DNA of 63,180 bases, filler included, from Kipferlia bialata (taxonomy: Eukaryota), in the NCBI GenBank assembly GCA_003568945.1. It is 6 parts of 6 records of this genome, joined end to end, with 100 filler letters (N's around TTAATTAATTAA, not from the genome) between each part and the next. Parts side by side here need not be neighbours in the genome. Positions count along the whole stretch, not along the records: positions 15,342 to 30,575 come from BDIP01000724.1; 5 more parts are not named here. One strand, written 5' to 3'. The notes beneath the pieces are model-generated. The model worked only from the letters and a program-made list of their open reading frames with translations, did no database searches and was not told where the DNA came from. Position numbers and translations under genes: made by a program. Shown piece by piece: positions 12,158 through 50,810 of the stretch; within the stretch, counting starts at the first letter, position 1, and every line of letters starts with the position of its first letter.

Positions 12158-14090
12158 ATGGGAGGATATATTCCACCTCACAAACGCACACTCAGGGCAG
12201 AAGAGGTTGAGGTTGGTTCGGTTGAGTACCAACGTGCTGAGTGGGACTCTATGAAGAGAAGCCTCAAGGGACTCTTCAATCGGGTACGAAATGGTGAACT
12301 ACTGTTGATCACAACCTGAACTCTGTCTTGTATACTTATGTCTGAATAATTTTACGTCAGGTGAACGTCGACAACACCCCTTATGTACTTCGGGACTTGT
12401 TCCGTGTCAATCTGATTCGTGGGAGGGGACTCTTTGCTAAGATTCTGCTAGAGACTCAAGCAGCTGACCCTGGCAGAACACCAGTTTATGCTGCGCTGGT
12501 GGCTGTAGTGAATGCAAAGCTACCAGATGTTGGCAGGCTTGTGGCTCACCGTGTGGTTGACATCTTTTCCTCTTCCATTCAGAGTGGCCAGAAGGCCGCC
12601 TGTCTTAATGCTGGGAGGTTCCTCGCACATCTGGCGAATCAGGGTGTAGTGAACGAGCTACTCGTTATCGAGGGCGTGTACATGCTTCTTCTACGGCCGA
12701 CTCCAGCATCAGTAGATGTTGCTGTCGAAATGGTGCGGTTGTGTGGTCAAATGCTCAGTTCCAGTGCCTCTGCCGGAATGGAAGCTGTCTTCGCCCGCCT
12801 CAGAGAGATATTGGAGGTTCCCGATACAGTTAGAAGGATCCGGTATGCAGTTGAGTCCCTGTTTGCTAGCAGACGAACAGGGTTTGGGGACTTCCCACAG
12901 CTTCCTGCTGGTCTGGCCCTTGTTGACCCATCAGATCAGGTACTGACTGTGGATGTGTTTGAGATTCTCACACTTTCTCTCTATTACGTGTCAGCCCGTA
13001 GTGACTCATCTTAAGGTCCGCCATTCCGTGTCCCTAGGTATCGGTGGCACACGCAGCAAGCTAAAGACCCGTCCAAAGCTTGACTGGTTTGTGGAGACTG
13101 AGGCCCCCCGCTATATGCTGGACACTGCAGCGTGGGAACGCATCAGTGGTGCGATTGTGCCTCAGATGGACAGTCTCGTGCCTGGACCCGAGGAGAGAGA
13201 AGCTGATGTGGCATCATCTGGTGAAGCTGGTGGTGACTCCAAGGTGCAGGAGCTTGTGAGGGACCAGCGGCCTGGGGCCCAGGTCGAGTATGCAGCCGCA
13301 GGCCCAGTTGATAGAGTTGACATGACAGACACAGATCGTATCCGTTACCGCCGTAAGGTGTACCTGGCTCTGCACTCAAGTGCGACTCATGACGAGGCAG
13401 TCCACAAGATGTTGAGGGCAGGTGTAGCGGGTCCTGGATCCGAGGAAGCTCTTGTGGACATGTTGTTGGATTGTGTGTCTCAGCTGCAGACATACCTACC
13501 ATTCTTCGGAGCCGTGTCCACACGCCTCTGCCAGCTTCACACCAAGTGGCAGGATGCCTTCGACGCTGCATTCCACTCCCGTTATGAGTCCCTGCATCAG
13601 GTCGACACAAAGGCTATTCGTAACATCGCTCGCCTCTACGCTCATCTTCTATGCTGTGATGCGCTGCCTTGGGAGATCATGGATGGAGTGCGTCTCTCCG
13701 AGTCCACTACCACTGCCTCGTCTCGTATCTTCCTCAAGGTAAGTACCTTTTCCTGGGGGTTTCCTTCTTTCTATTCCAGTGTCACAATCACTATTCATCT
13801 CATTTCAGGTACTTCTCCTTCAATGCGCTTCTGGTCTAGGAGTCAAGCCTCTCTGCAAAGTGTTGCAGGACAAGGATAACGCACCATATGTGGCTGGCCT
13901 CTTCCCAGACAGTCCCCTCGCAGATGCAGTGTTTGCATGTGACTTCTTTGCTGTGGTCGGGTTGGGTGACCTAGCGGCACCACTGAGGGAGTTTGTTGTG
14001 TCAGAGAGAGAGAGGGAGAGGGTGGATCGGCGTCTAGAAGATGTGATCTCCGAAGATGAGAGTTACTCTTACTCTTACAGTGACGATTGA
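12158..14090 (+). CDS. CWC22: Pre-mRNA splicing factor CWC22 (MIF4G plus MA3), 4 exons
   Basis: MGGYIPP...EYQRAEWDSMKRSLKGLFNR|VNVDN...NLIRGRGLF...YAALVAVVNAKLPDVG...FLAHLANQGV...RRKVYLALHSS...TTASSRIFLK. Confidence 0.96.
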
Positions 14091-15341: not shown

Positions 15342-15421
15342 CATTATGCACGACCGCGCTACACTAGCCCCATATTCGTGTAGCGCAGGTTCGATTACAT
15401 AGAAATATGGAATAGGGCCAT

Positions 15422-15716
15422 GGGACCGAACTTTTTGGGAGAAAAGGGTCTAGAGAAAATCCGGAAATATTCCGAATACAATTCAGATTTTCGGATATTG
15501 ATAGGGTGCAGCGTCCCCAGTCCGCCCTAAGGGCGAACGGGACGCTGCCTTCAGAGTCGCTGCGCTCCCTCATTATAGTGACCCCTTCGGGGATACTGCT
15601 TCAAGAATTGGCTAGCCCCTTCGGGGATACTGCTTCAAGAGATATAGGAGTTTTCAAGACCAGAATCGGAAAATGGGAAATGCCGATTATTTTTGATTTT
15701 CAAAAAGTTCGGTCCC
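15422..15716. mobile_element. Putative MITE-like or structured repeat element
   Basis: Perfect 16-bp inverted repeat gggaccgaactttttg (15422-15437) / caaaaagttcggtccc (15701-15716). Internal hairpin 15508-15548 and 25-nt direct repeat (15582-15606, 15616-15640). No clear target-site duplication. Confidence 0.45.
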
Positions 15717-16321
15717 CCCCCGCTTTCGTTTCTGACTTTGTGTAGTACTTTTAGGGCCATTGTTATAACGCCGTTACCGGCTTTGTGCAGTGTTTATACT
15801 TTTAGAGTCATTTTATTTACCTCAGGGCTAAGGAATTGAAGCTGTTGCTCAAGGAACAGACTGATCTTAAGAGGCAGGCTAAGAGGAACGCCCAGAGCTT
15901 GAGAGAAGTACGATTTATTCATCTTCGAGGCACTGGTAGTATTCATTCCCACCCTCGTAGTATGTATTCTATGGATACATTGTTTGTGACATTTGGTATG
16001 TCAGTGAAATAGATTTTCAACTAGCCCGTTTGTAGTGAATTGGATACTGGCCTCTTTACCTGTTCGGTGTTACGTCATAAGACGATACACCAATATAACA
16101 CTGGGGACCAAACTATGTTATATTGTATAGATACTACTCTATAAGGCTAATAACTCATATATTGATATATTAACCTATTCACAAACAATTTAAAAATAGA
16201 ATGCTAATTTCAAAATGCTTAAAATGATGACCCATTCTGTGGCTGAGGGTGTACAGTGAATTCGTGTCACAGCCTGGTGAAGTGACCCTAGCTTCTTCTC
16301 TTCTTAGTACTGTTGTCTAAT

Positions 16322-17776
16322 ATGTCCCTGTCCTCCTTCACCAAGTCCCTTGTGCACTGTGCCGATGGATCCTTCAAGAACATCATCATCGGCATCCAGG
16401 TACATACATACTTATAGTTAGTTACTATTACACCAACCCATATGTATATATACAGTACACTTGACACACACATATATTGTCTATATGGGTATACATCGAC
16501 AAATACAGACACCGTGGTGGTGGCATACTACAAGAACATCGTCATAGGCAGGGCAGACATATTGAGGTTAGACTCAGATGACATGTTTACAGTACACTTC
16601 CTCTTACCACCTTTATCTTCACATATATTGGTATTCAAGTTACAACGGTGTGTATATGGTCGTGGCGTTACATGGAGTGGTCTCTTGTTGCTTGTGTACC
16701 ATATTTGTGGCTCTTACCCAATATGTGTTGTTAGTCTCATTTAGTCCATTTTCAGTTTGGAACTGATATTTATATCCATTGCACATTGCCTAGAGGATAC
16801 ACTCTTTCTTGCTTTATGTATGTATCAGTATACATATACATATACACCGAGTTACCTAGATTGTTGAGGAACGGTTGTTCCCAAGACGTCTCTCTCTCTC
16901 TCTCTCAATCTCCCCCTCCCTTCCCCCTCCCCTATAACTCTCATCTTACCCTCAGGTCCAGAACCGTGCTGTCAACTCCGTTCCCCTCCAGCAGGTCAGT
17001 GGTTGTCTCTCTCTCTATCGCTACACTCTTATATATTCCCCTCTCTCTCTCTCTCTCTCTCCCCCTCCCCCCTCTCTACATCCTTATCCTCCTCCAGCAG
17101 GTCAATCTTTATCATTCTCTGTTTTCTTTTCTCTCTCTCCTTCTGCCAAGTACGGCTGCTCCATCAACAGCAGTATTCCCCTCTCTCCCTCTCTCTCTCT
17201 CTCCCTAACCCCTTATTGCAGGCCCTGACCAAGTACGGCTGCTCCATCCACACTTCTCTCTCCCCTCCCCCCCTAGCAGGGGCCCTATACCCTCTATTCT
17301 CTCCCCCTATACCCTTATGGCAGGCCCTGACCAAGTACGGCTGCTCCATCCACACTAGGGTTGGTCTCCACGACGTCGCCGGCAACTACTGCTCCCCCAA
17401 CGGTATGTGTGTATTTGTCTTATACATTCTCTTTACATATATGTGTACCTATGGTAGATTTAGAGGTACTGTAGTTCTCTCTCGCTCTCTCCATGGGTAT
17501 ATATACTTATATATTCTGCATCTAATATTAGGCACTGTCATTGTGACCTGCGAGGGCGAGGAGGCCCCCCGTCTCTCTCTCTGTACATATATATAAGTAT
17601 ACACATATACTCTACCTAGTATCAGGCACTGTCATTGTGACCTGTGAGGGCGAGGAGGCCCCTGTCCAAATATACTCTCTCTCTCTCTCTATTATATATA
17701 TATATACTATATATGTATCTATTGTGTATGTATCTAATATCAGGCACCGTCAATGTGACCTGTGAGGGCGAGGAGG

Positions 17777-17831
<55 letters not shown>

Positions 17832-18151
17832 ATACATATAAGTATAACCTATACTCTACCTAATATTAGGCACTGTCATTGTGACCTGTGAGGGCGAGGA
17901 GGCCCCTGTGCTTGAGATGATCAAGGCCATCAACGGCATCAAGGGTAAGTTTGTATATATTATTTGTTTATATACATATAGAGCGAGAGAGAGAGAGAGA
18001 GAGACTCTCGAGATCAAGGCCATCATACTTGTGTACATATATATTCACCCCAGGCGTCACTGAATATCTGCTATTCATAGAATTACTCTATATATAGGTA
18101 TATATACTCACCCCAGGCGTCAACTCCAAGACCATCGAGTTCGACATGTAA
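16322..18151 (+). CDS. Small (~101 aa) ACT-like protein resembling the bacterial 'iron-only hydrogenase system regulator' (TM1266-related) family, 5 exons
   Basis: Exons 16322-16399, 16956-16994, 17324-17402, 17870-17944, 18117-18151 splice in frame to MSLSSFTKSLVHCADGSFKNIIIGIQVQNRAVNSVPLQQALTKYGCSIHTRVGLHDVAGNYCSPNGTVIVTCEGEEAPVLEMIKAINGIKGVNSKTIEFDM*. Not visible in the ORF track. Family assignment is from memory of the LTxYGCxIxTRxGLH...CSxNG motif. Confidence 0.75.
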
Positions 18152-18437
18152 AGTGGCCACCGAACCAGACAGGACCCTTTTCTCACACACTTCCACCATT
18201 GAGGGTCTATTAGGTTGCTGTGTTGGATGACTGCTACTCTCCCCACTCACCATGCCATCCTCTCTTGCACCGGTTGTTGAATAGATATTCTCCACCTAGT
18301 TGTTGTTCTGTGGTTATAGGCCTAGTATTAATACAGTCTGCAAAGAAGAGTCTTTTTGGGTTTGGTATTAATGTCGGTTTCGACCGGTATCTAAACCCAA
18401 CTGTCATGACACTGATCGTTGGTCTTCAGTAGCAAGA

Positions 18438-20756
18438 ATGAAGCTTATCCTCGTTATTGCCGCCCTTGTGGTAAGTTCAACCCTATTAGAGTGTTATTTA
18501 CTTGTATTTATGGCCTTTTCAATGAAGATTGGTCCATACCGGGGGTGATTGACGATGTATGCTTCTTTGTGGGTCTTTTCCCGTTATTAGATGATTTGTG
18601 GTCGTTAGTGGATCACTTAAGATGTATGAATTACATTCATATGTCTCTTGTGAGCCTATGTGTCATGACATGTAGTGTATTGGTGGATTTCCATACAGTC
18701 AACATGGATTGGTAACTGTCTTGCTTCTCAATCGTCTCTCTCTCTCTCTGAGTGTGCATTTCCTCCTCTCACCATAGGCCCTGGCTGCTTGCCTGCCCTC
18801 TGAGTTCCAGCAGTTCTCCATTGCCTCTGTCGAGACCTCCCAGGTATCATATACTTTAGTATTATATATATATACTATTCGCCGCAATGTATATATAATA
18901 GATGTACATTTATGTATGTACTTATTAATTGCCTATATATGTGTGTCCAGCAGTTCTCCATTGCCTGCTGTACATACACCAAGTACATACACTTCTATCA
19001 CACAATGGGAGTCGGAGTGTTTTTATGAATAGATAAATATACATGCATCTCACCCTTAGACCGATGGCCCCTCCCCCACCCCCGCCCCCATTAGGAGCAC
19101 TGTACAGGGAGTGGACATTGACGTCCTCGTCAACATCGGTATGTACAATATATGTACACACTCATATACCCCCCCCCCTTTCCTCCTCTCTCTCTCTCCC
19201 TCTAGCCCCTCATTTCAGGAAAGGCTGCCTGGACTATTGTCAATGACAACAAGTCCGTGTTCAACTACGACTCCGACTCTGCCTACATCGTGCCTGAGGG
19301 TGAGTATATGGTATATATAGTAAATATGCATCATATATACATTGGTTGTAGTAGACAATTGTGTATGTACTGACACATATCTGTACTCATTTTAGACATC
19401 ACCAACTGGACCCAGCTCCGGTACTATACATATGTATTCAGTTACATATCAATATATTCATATATACATAAGTATATACAGTATGTATATATACACATAT
19501 ACTCACCTTAGGAATCACCAACTGGACCCAGCTCGAGTACTATACATATGTTTATATATGGTATTAATTACATATCAATATATACATAAGTATATATAGT
19601 ATGTATTTATACATCTTCTCACCCTAGGCATCACCAACTGGACCCAGCTTGAGTACTATACATATTACAATTTATATGTATATATATTCAATTACACATT
19701 AATATGTATATATTTACGTATATATTGTATGTATATATACTTATACTCATCCTAGGCATCACCAACTGGACCCAGCTTGAGTACTGGAGCCCCCCCGTCT
19801 CTGTAGGGTGAGTCTCTCTCTCTCTCTCTTCCTCTAGCCCCTTATATTCAGCTCAAGGCTGAGTGTCAGTATCTCTCTTTCTCTCTCTCTCTCTCTCTTC
19901 CTCTAGCCCCTTATATATATATTCAGCTACAAGGCCGAGCTAGTCTCTCTCTCTCTCTCTCTCCCTCTAGCCCCTTATTTTCAGCTACAAGGCCGAGTGG
20001 AAGAACGAGCTTGGCCTCCACATCTGCGACTTTGAGTGGGCCCTGATGTACACATACGGAGGTATATATGAATATATATATTAATCATTATAGAGAGTAC
20101 ATGTATCTATGTATATATGTATATGTATATATCTGCGACTTTGAGTGGGCCCTGATGTACACATACGGAGGTATATATATATAGTATACACACTATATAT
20201 TAGTACTCTCTATTCAGAGAGAGATAGAGTCTATGTATCTGCGACTTTGAGTGGGCCCTGATGTACACATACGGAGGTTTGTATATAGTATATGTATATA
20301 TTTGTACATGTTCTCTGTAGTATAGTATCATCGTCATAGTATGCTCATATATATATGCTAACCACTAGGAGAGTACAACGATGCCGGCCAGTACCTGTCC
20401 CACGTCACCATTGAGCCCAAGGTATATATATAATATGTATAATATATATTATACCTATATATAAATACTATACAATATATACTCATAGTATATGTATATG
20501 TATCTGTCCCCCGTCACCATCGACCCAAGGTATCTCTCTCTCTCTCTTTCTAGACCCTTTCCCTCACCCTAGCACGTCAACCTCGACTGGGGCTACTCTG
20601 CCAATGTCCATGTCTCTCTCTCTCTCTCCCTCTACACCCTTTATTCACCCTAGCACGTCAACCTCGACTGGGGCTACTCTGCCAACGTTCAGGTCACCAT
20701 CCCCGCTGACCCCGTCAACCTCGGTACGATACTCTCTCTACACTCTTATACTGATA

Positions 20757-20789
<33 letters not shown>

Positions 20790-20964
20790 GCACCCAAAAT
20801 ATTCTGTAAATTCTTCCTAAAACTGACCGTGTCAACCTCGTTATGATACTCTCTCTCTCTATCTCTCTCCTCTAAGTCTTGCTATTGCTGTATTTTCCAT
20901 GATCATCCACTGCCTCTCTCTCCCTCTACACCCTTATTCCAGGCTCCACTGAGACCCCCCGTTG

Positions 20965-20996
<32 letters not shown>

Positions 20997-21439
20997 TACA
21001 CCCTTATTCCCCTCTACACCCTTATTCCAGGCTCCACTGAGTCCCCCATTGCCGGAATCGAGATCAGGTACAAGAGAAGATACATATGTCTGTTTATCAC
21101 ATACATTACACCTCTCATTCACTCTCCTTCCTGGTGTTTCTCTCTCTCTCTCTCTACACCCTTATTCCAGGATGGTCGTTGACTTCACCTACCTCGGATT
21201 CGACGAGGGCTCCTGGACCTACCACGTGAGTGAATCTCTCTCTCTATTTCTCTCTCTCTCTCTCTACACCCTCATACTCCTCTCTGGTGGAGCAATAGAC
21301 TTCTTCTATTCCTCTCTCGCTCTCTCTCTCTCTCCCTTCACACCCTTTCTTCTATTCCTCTCTCTCTCTCTCTCTCTCTACACCCTTTACTCACCCTCAG
21401 TGGTTTGTCCAGGGTGACGGCGCCTACCAGGTCCTGTAA
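18438..21439 (+). CDS. Secreted hypothetical protein with signal peptide, 11 exons
   Basis: Spliced reading MKLILVIAALV|ALAACLPSEF...|...DVLVNIG|KAAWTIVNDNKSVFNYDSDSAYIVPEG|ITNWTQLEYWSPPVSVG|YKAEWKNELGLHICDFEWALMYTYGG|EYNDAGQYLSHVTIEPK|HVNLDWGYSANVQVTIPADPVNLG|STESPIAGIEIR|MVVDFTYLGFDEGSWTYH|WFVQGDGAYQVL*. All junctions GT-AG and phase-compatible. Confidence 0.85.
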
Positions 21440-22164
21440 ACGGCATGTCTGCAAAGTGCTAAGTGCGATATTAGGGTCTATTGTTAGACTCTCTTCTAGC
21501 ACTTATCATGATGATCCCAATATGACTGAATGTGTGTTAATGATGTGATGTGTCTGCAACTTGCTGCATGATGCGGCTGCAGTGGACAAGGAATGTGAAT
21601 GGATGAATTTAGTGTGTTGCTTGGTCCTAGTGGAGTGAGAGTAATATGTAGTATTGGACTAATAATCCTCACATTCAACCACTCAAAGAGAGCCCCACTT
21701 CTGTTTCCCTTTGCTTTCTCTATCAACTATAGCGACTGTTCTATACTATTTGGTTTGGCCAGTGCATAATGCACTCTCTGAGCTGGTGATACCATCAGGC
21801 CCTGAATCAGGGATCATTACAATACCTGGCAAATAATGATCAGATGAATTATCGGAGTTACCGACATGGGTGCCCATAATCAGTCTGATAATGGGCTCAG
21901 ACTTCTCTGTACGGACGTCAACAAATACTTCAAGCACCCGCTTCTCCCTCTACAATCTATTATTGCTCTATACACTGGGAGAAACAAAGGATCCTCCCAA
22001 AACAAGGGTATATACACAAATTATGTCTGAGAGACTACTCTCCCTCTCTCTTCCTCCCAAACACAATCTACCGTCTCAGAAGAGTGTCACTTTAGACACA
22101 GAGATAATAAGGGGCTGTCTAGGCCACCCACCAGTTCTACATCTACCTCTCTCTCTCTCTCTCT

Positions 22165-24934
22165 CTACCGTCTCCGTGTGGATGCCTTCTTGATGGTCCT
22201 CCTCTTCTCCCTGTCACCCTTCTTGGGGGGTCTAGCTAGGGGGTTAGGGTGATATATACAATATCAACATACACAAATTGATGGCTAGGAGGTTAGAGAG
22301 GTATATAAAATCATAACAAAATACATACATATATACACAGACACCAGTCATAGATATATTGTAATATATAGTATGAAATGTGTGGTCACACTTCTTGGGG
22401 GGTCTGGCTAGGGGGTAAGATATGTAGTATGTAGTATATAGTATACAACAAGTATAATACTAAACAATACTAATACATATAGATATTTACCTGATGCTGC
22501 CCTGGCATTAGAGCCCACTACTATATTAACTAATATATTATAATATATGAATCAAAAAAATGTATAATTGATTAATATAATTAATATAATTAATACTAAT
22601 ATATATATATACCTGATGATGCCCTGGCACCAGAGCCCCTATAATGTAACTATCACATTAGGTGAACAAATATATATGTCTTATCAATTATATTTAATAT
22701 AGTGGTCCATTCATAAGAATAAGTATTACCTGATGATATATATGTGTAGTAATGTACTGTGATTATATAGTTATTAATTTACCTGACGATGCCCTGGCAC
22801 TAGAGCCCCTAGTGCTACGTCCACTGGGACGCTCTGGAGTCAGTAAGATAAATATAGTACTCATATACAATGATATCACTAGAATGAGTGTGGACATGTG
22901 AAGATAATAGAGGATTAGTACCCATAGCTTACCTCCACTGAGACGCTCTGGAGTCAGTTAGACAGAGAAAATATGAAACTCTTACTGTCGTACAAATAGT
23001 AATGTATAATACTAGGCCATAATACTAATCGTTCAATGGTTGTATAATAATTGATTTATACTTGATGATAAATGAACCCTCACCTGATGATATGGGTGTT
23101 GGCCCCCTAATGGGCTCAGGGGATGGAGACAGAGGTGAGATTGGCCTTCTCTGCCGCATGGAGGAGTCTAGTTCATTCATGGTCCTATGATTAGAACTTA
23201 ATTATGCTAAACTAGTACAACTGCACGGTTCTATATTAATACTGTACCATAAACACATTATTACGTACAACAAACAACACAATTATACATATCATAATAA
23301 CACACCTCTGCAGCTTCTTGATGAAAACTCTCTCTCTCTCTCTACACTCTCATATTCCTCATATATATATATATATGTATGTATATATAACATACACACC
23401 TCTGCAGCTCCTTGATGACAGTCTGGTTAGGAGACCAATAGTTTCTAATACAATTGTTATATGTATATATATATATATATGTATATATATATAGTAGTAC
23501 CATAATATAGATAATACATATATGTATATATAGTACCTCTGCAGCTCCTTGATGACAATCTGGTTAGGAGACCGAAGCTCCCTCAGTCTCTGGGTCTCTG
23601 AGCCCATGTCTCTACCCCTCAGAGAGTCTCTCTCCCTCTGGGAACGGAGCTGACATGAGACTATATAAAAATATGAATTAATAAATTTAGATATACATAT
23701 ATATATATCCCCCTTACAGAGTCTCTCTCCCTCTGGCTGCGAAGCTGAGTGGTGAGTAACAGGTGTAGAAACGATTGAGTAGTGAGAGAGAGAGAGAGAG
23801 AGATCTCCAGTGTGTCTGTCAAAGTGAGTGACAGGGGCAGAAGCTATATAACTATACACTCACACATATACATCCCTATATATATATATATGTGTGTGTG
23901 TGTATATATAAGATATATACTATCTATACCTCCGGTGTGTCTGTGAGAGTGAATAAAGGGTCTAGAGAGAGAGAGAGAGAGAGAGAGATACCTCCGGTGT
24001 GTCTGTGAGAGTGAGTGACAGTGGCAGACGAGCATCGGCCATCATCTTGGACCTAGGCCTAGAATAAGGGTGTAGAGGGGGAGAGAGTAGCAACTCCATC
24101 ATCTTGGACCTAGGCCTAGAATAAGGGGCTAGAAGGAGAGAATAAGGGTGTAGAGGGAGAGAGAGAAAATGCGAATGACAAATAGTTGATCTTCAATGGT
24201 GGTTTATGGAACTACTAATATGCAAGAGACAGAAACGGAGAGAGAGAGAGAGAGAGAGAAAAGTACCTGAGAGGGGGAGTCACGGCTCTCTCTCTGGCCC
24301 TCTGCTCCCTGCGCATCTTGCCTAGGATATTAGGGGTGTAGAGGGAGAGAGAAGGACCAAGAGAGTAGTAACAGAGAGGTACCTTTTCCCCCACCAATAC
24401 TACATATATGGATACTCACACTTTACAGGTGTTCTCTATGTAATCACGTAAATACTGTATACATAGTATATATAGTATACGTATAGTATATATACAGTAA
24501 TTTAGTACCACGTACCTGATGATAGTGCTCTCCCCTCCACCCCGGGTGACAGCTCAGCCACCAGACGCTCAGTGGCAGACATGTCTTCTGCATATTAGAG
24601 AGAGTATGTAAGAAGGGAGAGAGAGAGAGAGAGAGAGAAGTCAGCCACAAGGCGCTCGGGAGCAGACATATCCTCTGAAGAGTCAGAGAGATTTATGTAT
24701 ACTCATAGATATAGATAGAGATTCTTATACATATAGTGAGAGAGAGAGGTCAGCCACAAGGCGCTCAGTGGCAGACATATCCTCTATAGGGTTAGAGTGT
24801 ATCGGTATATGAAGACAGAGAGAGAGAGAGAAAGAAACAGGACACAAGGCGCTCGGCGGCAGAAATATCCTCTGAAGAGTCAGAGATATATAGAAAATAC
24901 ATGCAAGTATACCTGCCGTTCTGGCCATCCTGGC

Positions 24935-24968
<34 letters not shown>

Positions 24969-26666
24969 CCCCTCTATCTCTGTATAGTCTATATATGTTC
25001 GTACCTGCCGTTCTAGCCATCCTTGCTTCCTCTCTCTGGAGCAGTCTCTTCAGACCAGAGCTCTTGGCCTCACTGCCTGACATAAAGGGTGTAGAGGGAG
25101 AGAGACAATAAGGGTGTAGAGGGAGAGATGGTAATGAAACCAAAGAGAAAGATAGTTGATACCTCTGACTCTGTCCCCTAGACTGTTCACTCTCTCTCCC
25201 TGTCTGCCAGTGGTCTCTCTGGACATTAAGGATGTAGGGAGGGGGAGAAATACTAAAAGTGTAGGGAGAGAGAGACACTAAGGGTGTCGGGGGAGAGAAA
25301 GAGATACCAATATAGCTGTATAGACAGTGTATCATGCCTCAGCTCCCTGATGTCTCTGGTGGTCATAGACATATACTTTGATACACACACACATATATAT
25401 ATACAATTATACATAGACATATAGACATGTATACCTCAGCTCCCTGATGTCTCTGGTTGTCCTGTCAGCTGTCCTGACACGCTCCTGACAATAAGGGTGT
25501 AGAGAGAGAGAGAGAGAACAGTCTTGAACACTAATGAAGGGTGAAGAGAGGATGGAGAGAGAGAGATATGTCGCGGTAAAGTGGAATAGTCTCTCGCGTT
25601 ATCCATACCTCTCTCTCCTGTGCGAGCAGTCTGTTGACTCTCTCCATATTGGCGGTGGAAGCGTCCTGTCTATCTGCCAGATCGGCCTATAATAAGGGTC
25701 TAGAAGGGGAGAGAGAGAGAGAGAGATGACTGGCCACCATGGCAAACCGAAAACGGTAATAAAGTATATATGTAGTAGTATATATACATACATTTATCTT
25801 TTATATTTAGTATATATACATACATTGGTACATTGGTACAGGGGGCCAACTCCAGACTGGCAAACAGGACACTGCCACAATAGAATACTATTATATATAC
25901 ATATACTATTTGTATAGCGTATATGTATAGTGTAATAAGGGTCCAGAGGGGGAGAGAGAGAGAGATACCTCCAGACTGGCCACCCTGGCAAACAGGACAC
26001 GGTTGTGGTTGTCCTGCTCCTGGAGTGAGATATATATGAAAATGGTTAGTGGATATGCATAGAGAGAGAGAGAGAGATCAATACAAATATACATTATGGC
26101 ATATGTTTCCTATATCATGGTATATATATAGAGAGATCCTAGAAGGTGAGGGGCACTTATATATGAAGATAGTGTACATACAGAGAGAGAGAGATATTAG
26201 GTAGACAGATATTGAGAGAGTAGAAAGGGATAATGAATAGAGAAGATACCACATAGAGGATATGGTTACCTCGAGCATACGCTCTCTCTCCCTCTCCCTC
26301 TCCCTCTCAGCCTCGATAGCAACAAGGCGCATGGACTCACTAAGAGTCAGCAGAAGTCAAGAGAGAGTCACCAGAAGTCAATTAACTATATATATCAGGT
26401 TGTGGATTATTACCTCTCTGCTTCTCTCTCTCTTTCCCTCTGCTCTAGCCCCTTAATGAGGTCACGCTGGGTCTCAATGACAGTGTCCTGGCGTAAAAAG
26501 GGTGTAGAGAGAGAGAGAGAGAGACGCAGAGAAGAAGCCGAGACAGAAGGAAAGAGAAGGAAAGTGTACCTGAGCATATAGAGAGGGAGAGAGTGAGAGA
26601 GTGAGTAAGAAGGTTTACCTGGGCGTTCTGCCTCTCCACCACATTTACCAACAGCATACAACGGGT

Positions 26667-26702
<36 letters not shown>

Positions 26703-27383
26703 CAGACATGTAGTGTATGCAGTACACAGAGAGTGAGTAAGTAGGCACCTGGGCGTTCTGCCTCTCCACCACGTTGACCATGAGCTTCTCCATGCCTGTA
26801 TTAAGGGTGTAGAGGGAGAGAACTAAGGGTGTAGGGGGAGAGACACAAAGAGAAATNNNNNNNNNNNNNNNNNNNNNNNNNNNNNNNNNGGGGAGAGACA
26901 CAAAGAGAAATTGAGAGTGTTGACCATGAGCTTCTCCATGCCTGGTATTAAGGGTGTAGGGGAGCGAGAATGAAGGGTGTAGAGGAAGGGAATAATAGTA
27001 TTATATAAATATAGAATAATAGTAACCTGTAATAAGGGTGTAGAGGGAGAGAGAATTAAGGGTGTGGGGGGGGAGAGAGAATGAATAGTGAAGAGAAAGA
27101 TAATACTTGTAGAGTGCGAAGAGAGAGAAAAAAATGTGACGAGAGAATATAAGAGTGAAGAGGGAGAGAGACAGAAATAGTACTAATACCCCTTCGACCA
27201 GGTCTCTCAGACTTCAATTCTCTAGAAGGTATACATATACAAACATTAACTATATATATATATACTTGGATTCCTTCAAAGACAGTATTATTGTACAAGC
27301 AAATATATGAATACCTTCAACCAGACCTCTCAGGCGCTCAGTCTCCTGTCTGGAGGATCGGAGCTCACGCCTAGTGGTTAGAT

Positions 27384-27419
<36 letters not shown>

Positions 27420-27420
27420 G

Positions 27421-27453
<33 letters not shown>

Positions 27454-28070
27454 CTGTCTCCTGTCTGGAGGATCGGAGCTCACGCCTGAGGATTAACATG
27501 AGAATGAATGCAGTAAGTACACACCATGTATGAAAATGTAAATATATGAATACACCTTGTGTCCCCTCTCCCAACAAATCTCTCCCTCTCTCTCTCGATA
27601 TATATATGTATATGTATATGTATATGTATGTATTAGCTTATACAATAGTACCTTGTATCCTCTATCTCTCTCTCTCTCTCTCAATATATATGTATATGTA
27701 TGTATAAGTATATCAAATAGAACCTTGTGTCCTCTATCTCCTGTGCATTGCGCCTCTCCCCCTCTCTCCATGGGGTGTCAGTCAGAGTATCTGCATTGCC
27801 TGGTATTAAAGGTGCAGGAGGAGAGAATAGAGGGTGTAGAGAGAGAGAGTACATATAAACTCTCTCCAGGGGGTGTCAGTGAGGGTGTCTGCATTGCCTG
27901 GTATTAAGGGTGCAGAGGGAGAGAAAAAAGGGTCTAGAGAGAGAGAGCAGGAGCTCTGCCTTGTCACTCCCACAATTACACATATGCGGATATACAACAT
28001 AATGAATCACGTTGTGCTATACATATATATATATACCTGATATCCTGTGCTCTGCCTGGCCTATACTCTC

Positions 28071-28109
<39 letters not shown>

Positions 28110-28675
28110 ATATATATCTATACATATGTATATACCTGATATCCTGTGCTCTGCCTGGCCTATCCTCTCATCCATGGCAGCAAGGAGGGGGGTCACATCT
28201 CTGAGGTGTTAAGGGTATATTGCAATATCAATACATATACTACTCCTATATATATACATATATATATATCCTCTCATCCATGGCAGCAAGGAGGGGGGTG
28301 ACATCTCTGAAGATTAGATACATGTGTGTATATATACATAGAGAGTGTATAAATATAGTAAACAATATATACACCATTCCATACCTGATATTGTGCTGCT
28401 GTAGTGACTGTAGCACTCCACTCCCAATGGATGCAGTTATGCCATCCAAAAACAATAAAAGGGTGCAGTGTACATATATAAATATATATATATATGGTGT
28501 ACAGTACAATACAATGTATATATTATAGACTTTACCTTATATTGTGCTGCTGCAGCGATGCTAGCACTCCACTCCCAATGGATGCAGTCATGCCATCCAC
28601 CAGCTGGGAGTGTCTTTGGGAGAGGGCATTCAACTGGCCTAGGATCAGTTATACATATATATATATATATATATA

Positions 28676-28710
<35 letters not shown>

Positions 28711-29036
28711 AGTTATGCCATCCACCAGTTGGGAGTGTCTTTGGGAGAGGGCATTCAACTGGCCTGATATTAGTGGTGTAGCGGGAGAGAGAGAGAAAAT
28801 TTAGTGTCTGAGAGAGAGAGCATTGAGCTGGTCTGACGATACATGTGTAGAGAGACATACAGAATTAAGTACCTATTAGGTACTTGAGCACTACTTAATC
28901 ATTCCCTTTGACTTCTATGCACAATACCGATAATGGTGTGCTCATAAGTACATATACACACCCTTTAGCTCGTCTGTCCTTGTCACACAGGCCTCGGTAT
29001 ACAATTACCAATAATACAATACATCCATATATATCC

Positions 29037-29076
<40 letters not shown>

Positions 29077-30440
29077 TATATATATATATTCTTATGAGTA
29101 TACCCTTTAGCTCGTCTGTCCTTGTCACACAGGCCTCGGCCATGGTCTGCACAGACTGCACCCTTAATGTGAGACAAAAACAATAAAGGGTGCAGTACAT
29201 ATATATATATATATATACAATTACGCACATCACACTCGGTGGCCATGGTCTGCACAGACTGCACCCTTAATGTGAGAATCAATTATATATACAATACACA
29301 TATATATATATAATTATGCATATCACACTCGGTGGCCATGGTCTGCACAGACTGCACCCTTAATGTGAGAGGATAAATTATGCAATTCATTGTTCAATGA
29401 ATGTACAAACAATCAATTGTTCAATGAATGCTATGTATAGTACTGAGTACACATATTATGCCCCGACTACAATAGAGGCTAATAACTATCGTCTGTGTAT
29501 CCCCTCGTTGACTCAATGTGCAGTCCGAGCCCTGCTCTCTCTCTCTCTCTCTCTATCTATATACATATATATACATATGTATATATATATATACATATAT
29601 TTACCTATCGTCTGTGTATCCCCTCGTTGACTCAATGTGCAGTCTCAGCCCTGCCTCAGTGTCAGACATGGACGTCAGGGCATGCTGGGGGTTAGTACGC
29701 GAGATAGCGCAAATATATATATATAGAGAGAGAGAGAGAGGGAGAGAGAGAGATATATATCTTTGTGTCAGACATGAACGTCAGGGTATGTACATATTAG
29801 TACATTAATATACATATGTATTCTTAGACACTTACACACCTTGTTGTCTGCACTTCCTGCTTCAACACAGATATCTCATCAAAGTAGCTACATATTCATA
29901 CATACTTACAACCTAGCGGTATTATATATGTTACACTCACCATATATATGCATTATTTATTAATAATACCTTGTTATCAGCCACCTCCTGCTTGAGCACT
30001 GATATCTCATCCAGACAGGTGAAGAGAGTGTTATTGAACACCTATAGTACACTAGAGCATGTATGTATAATACAATCAACACCAACCTTGTTATCAGCCA
30101 CCTCCTGCTTGAGCACTGATATCTCATCCAGACAGGTGGTCTTGACCTTGATGCCCTCAGAGGAGATGGAGGACCTGTGTATTAGATATATATACTAAAA
30201 TTGCATAATAATACCCAGTACTACATATACATACTATGAATATACATTTATAATATATATATATAGGTTGTCTTGACCTTGATACCCTCGGAGGATAAGG
30301 AGGATCTAGATGTTAGTACATGATATATTAATCCAATAATTACACCCAGTACTATATATACTATGAAGGATTTTATAGAAACATGACTATATATGTATAG
30401 GTTGTCTTGACCTTGATGCCCTCGGAGGAGATGGAGGACC
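22165..30440 (-). CDS. Coiled-coil-rich hypothetical protein, many short exons, 5'-partial
   Basis: Phase-compatible exons such as SSISSEGIKVKTTCLDEISVLKQEVADNK|HALTSMSDTEAGLRLHIESTRGYTDDR|VQSVQTMAEACVTRTDELK, ...MEKLMVNVVERQNAQ..., ending KKASTRRR* (stop 22165-22167). Confidence 0.7.
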
Positions 30441-30575
30441 TGTTTATGAGATACGATATAGTATATATATAGACTGTACAATATTCCTACATACTTTACA
30501 AATACATATAATATATATATGGCTAGCACTGTCGCTGGCAAAGAGCAACCTGATTGTGGAGAGGAAATGGTCTGA

Positions 30576-35586: not shown

Positions 35587-35642
35587 GGTCGCAGGTCGCA
35601 AGTCGCAAGATTTTGAAAAAGTCGCACATTTCCCAACCTTAC
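35587..35642 (-). mobile_element. Possible DNA-transposon terminus at contig edge
   Basis: Four copies of gtcgca next to ttcccaacctta. The reverse strand reads taaggttgggaaatg followed by tgcgac subterminal-like repeats. Confidence 0.3.
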
Positions 35643-36096
35643 TTGCACGGGCGGCACTCTTAATGGAGATCAGTTGACAGTACAGTCGGGCTACTCAGTG
35701 GTTTGGGTAGGTTCTGGAGTATTTGGACAGGGAGAGGAGGACCGGGTTGTAATTGATTTTGGTCTCTCTGGAGGGAGTTTTAGCATGGAGTGGGACACCA
35801 ATAGTGACCACCTAGCTGGAACTGGATTTGAGTGTTCTTACGGGTTGACATAGTTACTAGTCAATAGTAGTACCTTCCCAAGGTATACTCTAGTGTGTAT
35901 GTGTGTGTATGTGTGCGTAATACTGAAATAGATTGCATGTGTAAAGGTAGTCTATTACGGTCTGCACATACAATCTTGCTGGACATAGAACAATAACAAT
36001 GGAACAAATATGACGGATACAACAATTAGTCACAGCATTGGAATGACAGACACCTGGCCACCCTGGTTAACTCTCTCTCTCTCTCCCTCCCTCTCT

Positions 36097-36738
36097 CTAG
36101 TCACCCCTATCCCTGTCCCTCACTGTGACTGGCACTGGCTTAGAGAACAGACCAGTCTCGGCATCGTGGTTGAAACAGGACTGGCAGACTCTGACCTTGG
36201 TCCTTGAGGATTAGGGAGAGAGAGAGGAAGATATATACATATATTATATGACACACCTCTCGAACCGTGGCACGTCCACCTTCTTGACCGAGCATGCATC
36301 ACACATCACTCGGCCACAGTGTCTACAGTGGTGGCGCCTGGGTAAGATATGGTGGTATAGCACAAGTGTAGTACATAATATATATATATACATACATATA
36401 GTATACACACCATACCTGCTCTTTGCGTTGAACAGTCCGTGGCACAGCATGCACAAATCATATATCTAGTCTACAGAATATGTACATATATATATATATA
36501 TATATATTTATACATATACAGTAAACTACATACCTGCTCTTTGCGTTGAACAGTCCGTGGCACAGCATGTCCAAATCATTCATCTAGTCTACAGTATAGT
36601 ATAGTATATACATATATGAGTATGTATACATACACAGTATATATACTATAATAATATAATGTAATATATATACTATACCTGCTCTTTGCGTTGAACAGTC
36701 CGTGGCATAGCATGCACAGAGAGGCATCCTTGTCCTGG

Positions 36739-36795
<57 letters not shown>

Positions 36796-39700
36796 GGCAT
36801 CCTTGTCCTGGGGTGAGGAACACAGCAAGAGTGATTCAGATGCTGCCAATGTGATTTGAAGTGTATTGAAGTAGAATTCCAATGTACATATATATATCAC
36901 GCACAAAGAGGCCTCCATGTCATATGTATGCACACATACCCAAATGCCGCTATCTCGACTTGCAAACATATATGGTTTGTGGTAATAGTGTTTTAGTGAT
37001 CATATATATATACCTGCACCCAGCCCCTTGATGTGCCTGCCTCCTCGCGACAGTACAGGAACAGAAGGTGCCGGATCTGGGGTGAGTATCCGCCCCGAGT
37101 CATCATTGGAATCAACCACTGATACATGTTTGTGAAAACGCATGTGTTGATGAATAGACAGTAATTCACTCACCCATGGCTCACATGTCATGCTGAGGCT
37201 GGGCTCCCCTTGGTCATTGGTGTACAGGGTGCTGGCACCGGCCTAGTATTAGATACATGGATAATGCAAGAATCCAAGAGGTAAGACTTGTGATCCAAAG
37301 AGGATACCATCGAGAGAACAGAGTGACATAGGGTCCATCAAACTGATCATCAAGTACAAGAACCTGACCTAAGGCAGACTCCGTACTGAATATACATATA
37401 TATATATATATACTGTAACTCACCTCCAGCAGACTCCGGATTGTCCTCTCGTCATCTCCCCTGCTCAGTGCAATATGGAGGGGGACAACGGCGGAAGGTA
37501 GTCTTGAGTGTGAGTATGTTACTGTACACAGAGATAGTATAGCAGGAAACACACGCAGAAGGTATCACCGTCGCACTGAAATATCATCCACATACTACAT
37601 GTAATTTAATAGAGTAATGATGATATACAACATATATACCTCGTTCTCCTTGGGTCTGGACTGGCCCCTGTCCTCATCAAGTATTAATATCCAAATATGA
37701 CTACACATATACCTACAATTGCTACTCCACTTATACCATACCTTGTCCTCCTTGGGTCTGGACTGGCCCCTGTCCTCAGCATCAGAACAAGGGCCTCGAG
37801 GGACTTGTGCAGGACAGCAAGGCTAGGGGTGAGAGAGTGTGATATATATATACATATGCCTCGAGGGACTTATGGAGCACAGCAAGGCGAGGGATGAGAG
37901 ACTCATACATAACTCAACATCAGGAGAGTCAGATTCTGGAAAAATGTGAACAGTATATTACCAAATATGTATATATAGAGGAGTATCATAGTATGATGTG
38001 TCGAGGGACTTAACGAGGACCTTGGAAGTTCGGAAGGAAATAGGGAAACAAGAACAATTATACTAAATATAGAGAGAGAGACATATAGAGAGATAAACAG
38101 AGGCACATATTACCTGATTGGGGAGTGGTAGTTGACGTATTGGGTATGCATCTATACTGGATAGTCTCCTAGAAGATATGGATATACATACCAGTATATA
38201 CATACACATATATATGTATATACTCAATACCTGATTGGCGAGTGGTGGTTGACGTCCAGCCTCTCACAGTACTCGGGGATCAGCTGACCCCTGGCAGACA
38301 CAACCTAAGGTGAATGAATACACAGACATATATAGAAATATAGAAATAGAGAAATACATATAGCTGACCCCTGGCAGACACAACCTGAGGTAAATGAATT
38401 GATGGGTCCCCCACACCCACACCGGAGACATACATCGATACTTCCAATCCAATAATCACTTGTGGTTGTTGGATGTGTATGGTAGTGATATGTATTTGAA
38501 TATACCATCTATCAATTTGTATATTCGCGATCCGAGAAAGAAGTGTAAATGAGTCCTTGGTAGTGTAATATACTCAACTATCCAAATATATATACTCATG
38601 CAGCATCTATGTAGATACCTTGAGGCACTTGTGGTTGTTGGATGTGGCCAAGATGTGGAGGGGGGAGATGAGGTCCTGGGAGTGAGGGTGTACTGACTAG
38701 GATAATGAAACTATATTGTCAGTATCGTTGGAGACAAAGAGAGCGTGAACAGTACTGTATGTAATATGTAACACTACAATTAATTAATCTATACTATAAT
38801 ATAACTAATAGCACTCTAAACACCCACCTGGTCTATGGCGTCCATGCTGGAGTGGTAGCTCAGCAGGGCATCCAGGACAGCGGGGTCACCCCTCTCACAG
38901 GCTACGTGGAGGGCAGTGCGTTCACTGATATAAGATACATATACATATAAGGTAGTCGTGGAACAATATGGAGATCGATATGCCCCGGTATCCAGACTTA
39001 TGGAAGTATCAGTAAGTGTCGAATTAAGAAATAGTCGGGTAAAACATACACATGCACTCACCGCAGGTCCCTGGTATCAACGTTAGCCCCAGCTGTGATG
39101 AGCAACTTGACCACAGTGGCAGAGCCATGCCTATACATGAGAGAGGGAGAGAGAGAGGGAGAGAGAGAGAGAGAGAGACAGAGAGAGAGGATGCGTGTGA
39201 TGAGCAACTTGACCACAGTGGCAGAGCCGTGTCTAGAAGGTTAGATTGATACGCATATTTAGAGAGAGATTCAACAAGGAGAAGCCGAAGGACAGAGAGC
39301 GAGAGAGAGTGTAATCACACGTACCTAGCCGCGTAGTGCAGTGCTGGTTCGTTGAATGGGGGACCACATGTCTTGAGAGAGGCACCGCCCCTGAGGAGGA
39401 TGGAGACAACGTCACCTGGAATGGTAAGATATATGAATGATATATAAGAACTACAGAATGCAGTAGTATACATACAGGTGTACGTATATGTACATAAGAA
39501 ACACGTGCGTGTATGTATTAGTACACCCACCCATGTTTCTCTTGATGGCTATGTGCAGTCGTATATATATAGTATTAGCATATGTATGTGTATATATTAA
39601 TATAGTTGTATACATATACATATATAGCACCCACCCATGTTTCTCTTGATTGCTATGTGCAGGGGGGTGCCTGAGTTGGACAGGGCATTCACGATGCTGT

Positions 39701-42381
39701 TCTGGTCCTGAGGTGAGATACAGATTCACATACACATAAATATATATACATGTACCTGTGTATCGATCCCCTGTGCCTCATACAACACATACGTGTAGGT
39801 ATATATATATATATATATACACTGTATATATATATATACTTCTCTGCCCTACCTGCGTGTCAATCCCCTGTGCCTCATATAGCAGTAGTGACACCCTGGC
39901 AGCTGTGTCCCCATCTGTGTCAGACACACTCTCGCTGTCCTCTCTCTCCCTCTCAGCATCACCAGTCTCCACCACAGTGTCCTCAGCGGGTACACCCTCT
40001 CCCTTTTCCTCTCCCTCTCCCTCTCTCTCCTTGTCATCTAGAGAGACAGGAGAGGGAGAGAGACGGGGGTTAGAGGCTGAGGCAGAGAGAGTGGAGACGC
40101 CGTCTCCGTCTGCCTCCAGTGTACTCTCTCTCCCCCTGTCTCCCTTGCTATGGGTGTGTATGGGGTTGAGTTCACACAACCTGTGCAGAACGGTGGTGCC
40201 AGAGCTTGAAGTTAGGAATACAGTAGGAATAAGTGCAATATATAGATCAGTCAACACTGTAGTCGGTCTCTCTCTATATATAAAACATATGACATATGAC
40301 ATATTTACGCACTTGTCGAGTGGCAGGTCTATACGTGCCCCGTGTCTGACCAGCATGCTGACTATGTCACTGTTGTACACCTGGAGGGCACTGGAAGTCA
40401 GTATCAATGAGAAGATCAAACATATACGGGGTGAGATTTAACGAAAATACTTGGGATGAATACATGGTATATCATTGTTGTGTAGCCGAAGGATACAGGG
40501 TTAAGGGAATAGGTAAGAATATCAGACAACTCCACAATTGTGGACTAGAAAATGTCGCTATTGTGTTGTTGATACACGAACCGGAATAGTGGTGACTCGT
40601 GGTATGCACTGACAGCATCAGGATCAGCACCTGGCATTGAGGGGGTAGACAATAACAAGGGAGATAGAGAGAGAGAACAATTCGAATCCGTCAAGAATAC
40701 ATGGACATGGACTTTGAAATGCATAAAGAGAGAGAAAGAGAGAGATACCCACCTGCCGCCAGGAACAGCTCCACTGTCTCCCTCACCCTCTCTGCGTGCA
40801 CGTCCTCTCTCTGCCTCTCCCTCTCTCTCTCCCTATCACTCATCCCTTCTGGGAGTGTCTTCCTAGCCAGCACAGGGCTGGACATGCAGGATAGAGACGC
40901 GGAGGCAGTGCTGCTGGAACTACACGCACAGAAGAGAGCCGTCTCACCGCAGAACGTACGGCTATCGGGGTAGGGCGTTCGCCGTAGCAGGCGGCCTAGG
41001 GATGCGAGAGCGGATGCAGGGGATACGGTGGCAGACTGTATAGGGCAGGTAGAGGGGTGGCATGCGTTGGGGTGAGAGCATGTGTGCCTGAGGGTGAGGG
41101 AGCTCAAATAGCACAGGATGTATATGTACATGTACATATAGATACCTGTGGTAGTGTCTGTCTGCCAGGGCTGTCTCTGCATATGTGTGTAGGAGGTCCC
41201 GGCCAGTGCCACTCCACAATCTGGAGGTGAGAACCTTTATATATACATCGATAGTATATATATATACATAGTGTATATTCATAATATATACAGTAACTCA
41301 TATATATGTAGTTGTGAGGAATGTCAGTATCTACCTACTCTCTGCCCCGTGTATAGGCACATATCACAGGTACACACAATACGCATATGTACATATTATG
41401 GTACCAGTGTAGTCATGCCTTTATATATATATATGAATATCTACCTAATCTCTGCCCCGTGTCTCGTGGCCACTATGTCTGAGGATGGGTCATGTCTGCA
41501 TGCACATGGGGTGGATGCACCAAAGGACAGGATCTGCTGCACATTGGCACCTAGGGTGAGATATATACATATGTATATATATATATATCTATCTATCTAT
41601 ATATATATAGTGACATATAATGTAAGTGACAGGGGGTGGATGCACCACTGTCACCGAAGGACAGGATCTGCTGCACATTGGCGCCTGCCAAGTGAGAAAA
41701 CACACCCACAAACAACAAACATATATTACATATATGGAAACATAGACCTGGCGTGTGGACTGATGTCTTTGGTATGCCCTCAAGATACATATGTCATATC
41801 TATAACTATCTATAATATACTATATATATATATTTATATATATATCCACCTGGCGTGTGCACCGATGTCTTGGGTATGCCCTCAAAGGAGAACACAGTCA
41901 CAATGCCAGGCGGGCTGGGGTCAGGAAGATAATAAGAGAAGTAACACGAACAAACCACTATCCACAATTCATGTGGTTAACAATACACATAACTCTGCCC
42001 CTGGGTGTGGCTGAACACACCCACACACACACACACATATATATATGTATGTGTAAGTGTGTACATATATGGATATATGAGTGGATATAATACCTCTGCC
42101 CCTGGGTGTGGCTGAACACCCACACGCACTCTGCTGCAAAGGTGATGGAGTCGACCTGGGGTGGGGACGGTAAGAGGATACGTGGTAGAGAGGGTACATC
42201 CTACTATAACCATCGGATATATAGTGTATGTAGACATATGACACTCACCACCGTGTGTGTCTCATCACATTATGATGCACATATACATAATAGTGTGGTG
42301 CAATTGAAAGGACTATTCTACATATACTCACCACCGTGTGTGTCTCCTCGTGGCACATGCCTATACCACTCTCATATTATT

Positions 42382-42426
<45 letters not shown>

Positions 42427-42880
42427 ATGTAGACATATGACATATACCACCGTGTGTGTCTCCTCGTGGTACATGCCAATGCCACTCTCATAGTGGGATA
42501 TCTGCGAGGGGGCAGTCCCAAGGACAGCAGTATCGCCAGCAAGGTGACCTAAGGTAAGCTATATACAGGGAATAAGAGGGAGACTATAAGAGATACACAT
42601 ATAATCACACAGTACCTTTGAACGGCCCGCCTCGTCCAGACTACTTGTAATACACATATATAACTGTATATAATACTGTAATACACATAGATATAAGATA
42701 TACATATGTATTATTTGACATATATATGGGCATGTACCATACCTGTGAATGGTCCTGCTTCGTCCAGACTGCTCCTCTGCAGCAGAGTACCCGTATATGT
42801 GACACTGGGCATGGAACCAGAGGCAAGGGTGTCGAGGGAGAGACCAAGGGCCTGGGTCAGATGTGAGAAGTAGTCGGACA

Positions 42881-42925
<45 letters not shown>

Positions 42926-50630: not shown

Positions 50631-50810
50631 GGGTTAGAATATGTATAGAATAGTATATGTAGAGTATGAACTATAGTATATACATACTGTACTGATGGCA
50701 CCCGCAGTAAGGGACGTCACACTGAGTATTGCACAACACATAATAAGATAGAGTATCCTGGTAAGACACCTCCCCCCCCCCCCCCCCCCCCCCCCCCTCC
50801 ACCCCCTCAC

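Follow-up and report, generated by a model that had tools for sequence, protein, structure and literature searches.

A eukaryotic, intron-bearing member of the bacterial CPF_0552 family in Kipferlia bialata with a presequence-like N-terminus and circumstantial ties to [FeFe]-hydrogenase

The described proteins closest to the one considered here belong to the bacterial TM1266 family: the structure 2NZC is a tetramer, and a TM1266-type protein has been used as a design scaffold (PMC12626770; articles with PMC numbers are cited throughout for the parts consulted). In the parts consulted of three further papers, genes of this type are named only as annotation (PMC9679718, PMC7039931, PMC12917699), and the literature searched, in which subscription journals were little covered and whose supplements could list such genes, contained no functional study of TM1266, of the CPF_0552 family or of a eukaryotic member. 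As for [FeFe]-hydrogenase maturation, iron delivery to HydG limits the process in vitro and an iron carrier helps the HydG 'dangler' site (PMC12501116), while aspA has been tied to hydrogenase maturation (PMC11736057). The maturases are described as always organelle-targeted, and most mitochondrion-related organelles are without a genome, by loss (PMC11316075). Kipferlia encodes the hydrogenase, HydE, HydF and HydG (PMC5874029, section 14); its genome paper states that the survey reported there used only queries from Trichomonas and Giardia (PMC5874029), and the parts consulted of the literature on the organelle make no mention of a CPF_0552-type protein.

Here we describe KIPB_003679 of Kipferlia bialata, already present in databases as a hypothetical protein. 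We read it as the eukaryotic version, with a putative presequence, of a bacterial family that is still uncharacterised; its ties to [FeFe]-hydrogenase are good, though circumstantial. Like eukaryotic HydE, HydF and HydG, it is a bacterial-type protein of the hydrogenase system with an organelle presequence, predicted in its case; unlike them, it is not an essential enzyme but a small accessory protein, found here only in fornicate-type sequences. Metamonad mitochondrion-related organelles are not known to contain DNA, and the same is assumed for Kipferlia.

Gene structure and transcripts

The window, that is, the whole stretch of 63,180 nt analysed, is a chain of scaffolds with N linkers, and the gene lies on a 15,234-bp scaffold at 15342-30575. 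When exon 3 and the adjoining sequence were searched against proteins, there was a single match, Kipferlia bialata KIPB_003679 (GIQ82522.1, P0001), which is the spliced translation of the exons in 16322-18151. The first-pass annotation had proposed a spliced reading frame of 101 amino acids, and this proved correct: the coding sequence comprises five exons with 306 nt (101 amino acids and a stop; GC3 of 0.85), and the four introns, all GT-AG, of 556, 329, 467 and 172 nt are spliced in probable RNA contigs. The motifs and the N-terminus it had quoted are likewise present as described. The features are:

16307..16321, + strand, 5' UTR, transcript start about 16307 (contig starts of runs X2, X3 and X4)
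16322..16399, + strand, exon 1, residues 1-26 (reading frame, RNA contigs)
16322..16348, + strand, predicted organelle presequence, residues 1-9, putative cleavage after K8-S9 (gap-free alignment to MLSxFARN/SF of three eukaryotic homologues)
16349..16381, + strand, eukaryote-specific linker, residues 10-20, of equal length in 4/4 eukaryotic members (alignment)
16382..18142, + strand, CPF_0552-family ACT-like domain, residues 21-99, exons 1-5 (NF052672 82.4 bits, AlphaFold2 model)
16400..16955, + strand, intron 1, GT-AG, 556 nt, phase 0 (RNA contigs)
16956..16994, + strand, exon 2, residues 27-39 (frame, RNA contigs)
16995..17323, + strand, intron 2, 329 nt, phase 0 (RNA contigs)
17324..17402, + strand, exon 3 with conserved G45, C46, R51, G53, H55 and C62 (frame, alignment)
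17342-17344, 17369-17371 and 17390-17392, + strand, codons of C46, H55 and C62, respectively (exon 3)
17403..17869, + strand, intron 3, 467 nt, phase 1 (RNA contigs)
17870..17944, + strand, exon 4 (frame, RNA contigs)
17945..18116, + strand, intron 4, 172 nt, phase 1 (RNA contigs)
18117..18151, + strand, exon 5, coding part with TAA (frame, RNA contigs)
18152..18296, + strand, 3' UTR within RNA-contig cover (X2 contig end at 18296)

Runs X2-X4 are probably RNA (none is recorded as such, and the spliced joints support this), and X1 is DNA. Contigs of both X2 and X3 are spliced at all four introns, and a contig of X4 at introns 1 and 2, the contigs with these joints coming from two samples and two studies; 0/4 of the exon joints are present in X1. 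The contigs of X2, X3 and X4 start at 16307-16308, 14-15 nt 5' of the ATG, such contig ends being a weak hint only of the transcript start. Loose letters ahead of the X3 contig start match nothing in the window and recur in the parts consulted of five unrelated RNA-sequencing papers, consistent with a library adapter. Since no upstream exon joint was seen within 15342-16420 and the frame is closed by a stop 11 codons 5' of the ATG, with no Met in between, the N-terminal extension is truly encoded; a longer N-terminus via an upstream exon is ruled out on the same grounds. Both gene and N-terminus are genuine.

Family, fold and conserved residues

Against NF052672, the model of the CPF_0552 family, KIPB_003679 scores 82.4 bits (E = 1.5e-23), 2.6 bits below the curated cut-off of 85, and the match covers the whole model (positions 2-80 of 80) with residues 21-99. 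Membership in TM1266 is rejected by scores below the cut-offs, 18.9 bits for TIGR03959 (cut-off 60.8) and 14.4 bits for PF21699 (cut-off 27), and a Pfam scan gave nothing above cut-off. By its profile scores, KIPB_003679 is assigned to the uncharacterised CPF_0552 family, sister to TM1266; it differs from the bacterial CPF_0552 members in being eukaryotic, split by introns, and longer by about 16 N-terminal residues that include the presequence-like part. The homologue search covered 1.84 billion representatives and gave 279 matches at E ≤ 0.001, 150 of them listed; a word-index search with KIPB_003679 found only the protein itself (1 candidate), and an atlas search only bacterial-dominated TM1266-like clusters (0.85-0.90), which is a lead only.

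The conserved addition of the CPF_0552 family to the TM1266 fold is Cys-x8-His-x6-Cys. C46, H55 and C62 are present in 69/77, 73/77 and 71/77 aligned sequences, and all three occur in 25/25 hydG-linked copies and 4/4 eukaryotic members. KIPB_003679 keeps R30, Q38, G45, C46, R51, G53, H55, C62 and G66, and has the family residues R-x7-Q, GCxIxxRxGxH and C-x3-G, a set defined from our own alignment. Tandem genes and two-domain fusions of the family exist, and together with the 2NZC tetramer they make an oligomeric state likely for CPF_0552. In P0020, the CPF_0552 domain is fused to a desulfoferrodoxin N-domain.

A single-sequence PDB search with KIPB_003679 gave nothing significant; with a 77-sequence profile, the sole significant match was 2NZC (E = 4e-7). 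The AlphaFold2 model (pLDDT 94.1) is a four-strand, two-helix ACT-like domain, for which Foldseek ranks the 2NZC chains 1-3, followed by PII-like, ACT and NikR domains, and its comparison with 2NZC gives a TM-score of 0.84 on the target and an rmsd of 2.0. An ACT/ferredoxin-like fold is thus predicted with high confidence. The relation to TM1266 claimed by the first-pass annotation is upheld as homology and common fold, whereas the family itself is CPF_0552/NF052672; KIPB_003679 and TM1266 share the slot beside hydG, but their identity is about 20% and 2NZC does not have C46, H55 and C62. The C-terminal metal-binding domain of NikR and other ACT/PII-like domains have the common ferredoxin-like fold (Foldseek E about 1e-4) at 8-18% identity to KIPB_003679, whose putative ligand residues need not be equivalent to theirs. 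The architecture of NikR includes a ribbon-helix-helix DNA-binding domain, which KIPB_003679 does not have.

Gene neighbourhoods and co-occurrence in bacteria

GTDB genomes yielded at least 446 pattern matches, of which the best 80 loci, a non-random set from 79 genomes, were analysed. A maturase gene lies within 400 bp of the CPF_0552 gene on the same strand in 26 of the 80 and within 6 kb in 33 (the 26 and 7 more); 5/80 have only hydrogenase-like or NuoF matches, and 42/80 none. Typically, the hydrogenase genes are followed by hydG, the CPF_0552 gene, aspA, hydF and hydE, and the CPF_0552 gene adjoins hydG repeatedly, in several phyla. Among genomes without a nearby maturase, 42/47 have HydG over the cut-off elsewhere, giving a total of 74/79. 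When loci were drawn randomly (18 from 17 genomes), two, from one genome, touched a maturase, two followed nuoF-hydA-kinase and 14 showed no hyd gene; the 11 Bacteroidota copies among them form one look-alike subfamily. In the plasmid collection, none of the 17 features of the 1 matching record was a hyd neighbour. At L093 (4777-7405), a copy has rubrerythrin, redoxin and ferritin genes as its neighbours.

TM1266 occurs in 5/32 genomes whose maturase locus holds a CPF_0552 gene, and in the one Planctomycete having TM1266 its gene lies directly before hydG. With this overlap and the shared hydG-side position, the two families mostly alternate in one slot and yet can coexist, as they share one genome or operon in the T. 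maritima control and at two loci, L056 and L069. In the control genome, Thermotoga maritima, both genes are over the cut-off; at L056 (1698-6243) and L069 (1419-6243) the order is TM1266 gene, TonB-dependent receptor, hydG, CPF_0552 gene or genes, and L069 carries two tandem CPF_0552-like genes, mirroring the two-domain fusions.

CPF_0552 co-occurs near-strictly with [FeFe]-hydrogenase systems, in counts that are phylogenetically non-independent and could partly reflect strict anaerobiosis. In a random sample of 201 Planctomycetota genomes (the phylum of G012), 7/7 carriers have HydF against a background of 24/201 (Fisher p = 1.2e-6 without the centre genome, relatedness uncorrected). In a random sample of 201 Bacteroidota genomes (the phylum of G033), 12/12 carriers have an [FeFe]-hydrogenase domain against 22/201, and eight of these carriers are among the 12 genomes with HydF. 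The gene is evidently accessory, since most random copies stand alone and 17/24 HydF-bearing Planctomycetota have no CPF_0552 match (a 0/17 search that had no positive control). The association with hydrogenase maturases asserted by the first-pass annotation therefore finds support in the selected loci (33/80) and in co-occurrence, and is weakened by the random loci (2/18) and by the many maturase genomes without the gene. The other 4/12 Bacteroidota carriers are without HydF and HydG: in these genomes (G250, G287, G367 and G387; loci L082-L085), neither was found, and each combines a CPF_0552 gene and a HydE-like gene with 4-6 matches to [FeFe]-hydrogenase domains. They could be incomplete genomes or use another maturation route.

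Eukaryotic homologues, targeting and a candidate function

Three other eukaryotic members were found, two in Carpediemonas membranifera (J8273_8527 and J8273_3406) and one, P0004, on a contig that is taken as eukaryotic because the gene, itself intronless, lies beside genes for a TRAPP subunit and a class C GPCR domain. P0004 was the listed match that aligned along the whole extension, and it led to both Carpediemonas proteins; in a metagenome scan, 1 locus among 371 pattern matches was the P0004 gene itself. The three score 87.5-88.6 bits against NF052672, above the cut-off of 85, and all four members align with a single one-residue gap, KIPB_003679 being 41% identical to J8273_8527. By full-length score, the Carpediemonas proteins (70.3 and 69.6 bits) merely tie with the best bacterial one (70.1). 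Among the 150 matches listed of 279, there was no homologue in other hydrogenosome-bearing eukaryotes. P0161 (KAG9393273.1) is four accession numbers from the C. membranifera IscA (KAG9393277.1), which hints at nearby genes and may be chance.

In a first tree (87 columns, 40 of 80 loci, 50 of 149 matches), 49/91 forks are open and no donor is named. A second tree, from the core columns of 42 hand-picked rows, separates Kipferlia, as a long branch, from the three other members, which it joins in 0% of 200 bootstrap trees; a single eukaryotic clade is not rejected (p-AU 0.40). Phylogeny, which had been proposed as a check, does not show one eukaryotic clade but is compatible with it, so that one transfer or two would fit, and it leaves the donor unnamed. 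Given that Carpediemonas is the sister lineage of the remaining fornicates (PMC9161772), a single early transfer is the most economical scenario, to which the linker common to the eukaryotic members may lend modest support, its residues 11-18 ranking in the top 1-4% of background 8-mers. The gene is nuclear and bears introns, while its homologues elsewhere belong to prokaryotes and have only a patchy distribution among eukaryotes; the lateral acquisition suspected earlier is supported on these grounds, anaerobic bacteria being the likely source and an early fornicate the likely recipient.

The three other eukaryotic members have the same 19-20-residue extension as KIPB_003679, whereas in bacterial members only 2-6 residues precede the core, as in 109/143 aligned matches; of 18 other long N-termini, 14 have an internal Met just before the core. 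A presequence rule derived from Trichomonas specifies a start of ML[STACGR], MTL or MSL, no Trp, no net negative charge, and the cleavage motif RXF/ or R[FNESG]/ (PMC2597178). The start motif is found in 4/4 eukaryotic members, which also agree with the rule on Trp and charge, versus 4/178 others, and one bacterial CPF_0552 member likewise starts MSLS. The cleavage motif of this Trichomonas-derived rule is present in 3/4 eukaryotic members and not in Kipferlia, which has Lys there instead of Arg, and whose amphipathic moment is the weakest of the four (0.34 versus 0.47-0.54). Other fornicate organelle proteins begin alike, for example Chilomastix IscA with MLSSLSRSF and Kipferlia ferredoxin with MSLSLTS (PMC9161772, Table S4). 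In the KIPB_003679 model, residues 11-20 have a pLDDT of 96 and residues 1-10 of 79; the linker forms a small hairpin that is not seen in a second (Carpediemonas) model, in which residues 1-10 have a pLDDT of 53. Kipferlia has MPP subunits, and Carpediemonas presumably has HydEFG. The targeting-like character attributed to the extension is supported in that it is absent from bacterial members and common to the three other eukaryotic ones, and is qualified by the missing cleavage Arg in Kipferlia; import into the hydrogen-producing organelle is, on these sequence features, likely.

From these results, a hypothesis regarding the function may be put forward, with a confidence somewhat short of even: KIPB_003679 may be a laterally acquired, organelle-imported, non-essential and likely metal-binding helper of [FeFe]-hydrogenase maturation. 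Its short Ser/Leu N-terminus would very probably direct import and be clipped near residue 9 by the organelle processing peptidase, and the mature protein would probably oligomerise like the TM1266 tetramer. The conserved C46, H55 and C62 might bind Fe(II) or Fe-cysteine, for which we see an even chance. More doubtful is the last step, in which the protein would hold or supply iron for the HydG 'dangler' site, or sense iron and tune HydG by contact. A role with HydG iron or Fe-cysteine is proposed because of the hydG adjacency, the conserved potential ligands, the NikR-like fold, the iron-related fusions and neighbours, and the benefit of an iron carrier. It is tentatively conceivable, at a probability clearly under even, that free-living fornicates import a fourth, unrecognised maturation protein, which would chaperone iron for HydG by means of Cys and His and would have been acquired together with the hyd genes or later. 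For the delivery of iron to HydG in vivo, a small Cys/His protein that many bacteria encode beside hydG and that protists retain, with a putative presequence, is a direct candidate. Should the protein be such a chaperone, this would be the true function of the CPF_0552/TM1266 superfamily, to which the label of transcription regulator has long been attached, and the hydrogen pathway that anaerobic eukaryotes acquired laterally would gain one more component.

Other explanations have to be weighed. The protein might be an organelle-targeted stand-alone ACT subunit that carries no iron; its ligand would be an amino acid or other metabolite (Cys, Tyr, Asp), and it would act allosterically on HydG, AspA or the hydrogenase. 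This is rather unlikely: ACT-type and PII-like folds do fill the Foldseek list after 2NZC, the most frequent operon has the gene flanked by hydG and aspA, AspA being tied to maturation (PMC11736057), and tandem genes and two-domain fusions suit ACT dimers, but the near-invariant Cys/His/Cys set, the NikR metal-binding domains among the fold matches and the fusion to an iron-binding desulfoferrodoxin domain all point to metal. The same low probability is assigned to a general organelle protein of iron or redox homeostasis, linked to hydrogenase only via common lifestyle and iron demand. The 14/18 random loci without a hyd gene, the rubrerythrin/redoxin/ferritin locus, the desulfoferrodoxin N-domain fusion and the four carriers without HydF and HydG speak for it; the repeated position beside hydG in several phyla argues against it, as does the fact that in the two 201-genome samples every carrier has HydF (Planctomycetota) or an [FeFe]-hydrogenase (Bacteroidota).

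Less probable still is a cytosolic protein, for instance one serving a cytosolic hydrogenase, whose extension would have a structural purpose or be what remains of a targeting signal after decay. The Arg cleavage motif missing from Kipferlia and the folding of residues 11-20 (pLDDT 96) and 1-10 (79) in the first model agree with it; on the other hand, the three homologues fully satisfy the presequence rule, residues 1-10 of the Carpediemonas model reach a pLDDT of only 53, and the maturases are described as always organelle-targeted (PMC11316075). We consider it very improbable that KIPB_003679 regulates transcription, a role suggested by the name of the TM1266 family, or that it is a bacterial contaminant. 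The term 'regulator', which the first-pass annotation had adopted, comes from annotation only: it appears in database names, TM1266 being entered as 'iron-only hydrogenase system putative regulator', and PMC9679718 labels a TM1266 homologue a transcription factor from annotation alone, whereas the model is a single ACT-like domain that matches the metal-binding half of NikR and has no DNA-binding part. In a DNA-free organelle, moreover, the protein would not be the transcription regulator that the sister-family name implies, and the superfamily label could not mean transcription control there. Bacterial contamination is excluded by the four spliced introns and by the TRAPP subunit and class C GPCR-domain genes beside the homologues. 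The iron-related helper of hydrogenase maturation is retained as our working hypothesis.

A separate observation concerns the introns. In the window, at 16400-21400 and on the scaffold at 35587-50810, they hold partial copies of adjacent exon ends, including splice sites. In KIPB_003679, parts of exon 3 recur within intron 2 at 17146-17165 and, together with the acceptor AG, at 17218-17254; in intron 3 the beginning of exon 4 recurs in part three times, each time preceded by AG (17532, 17626 and 17744), and intron 4 briefly repeats the end of exon 4 (18010) and the start of exon 5 (18054). The RNA contigs skip these copies. An assembly artefact is rejected, several of the copies being covered by DNA contigs without differences, and no literature titles on such intronic exon copies were found. 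Near direct repeats of at least 16 nt number 52 (3.4/kb) in the scaffold at 15342-30575 and 33 (2.2/kb) in that at 35587-50810, and 0-2 in each of the other four scaffolds of the window. Directly after KIPB_003679, at 18438-21440 (+ strand), lies a multi-exon gene with a signal-peptide-like start, MKLILVIAALVV, and on the previous scaffold, at 12160-14090 (+ strand), there is an intron-poor gene that we take to resemble the splicing factor CWC22.
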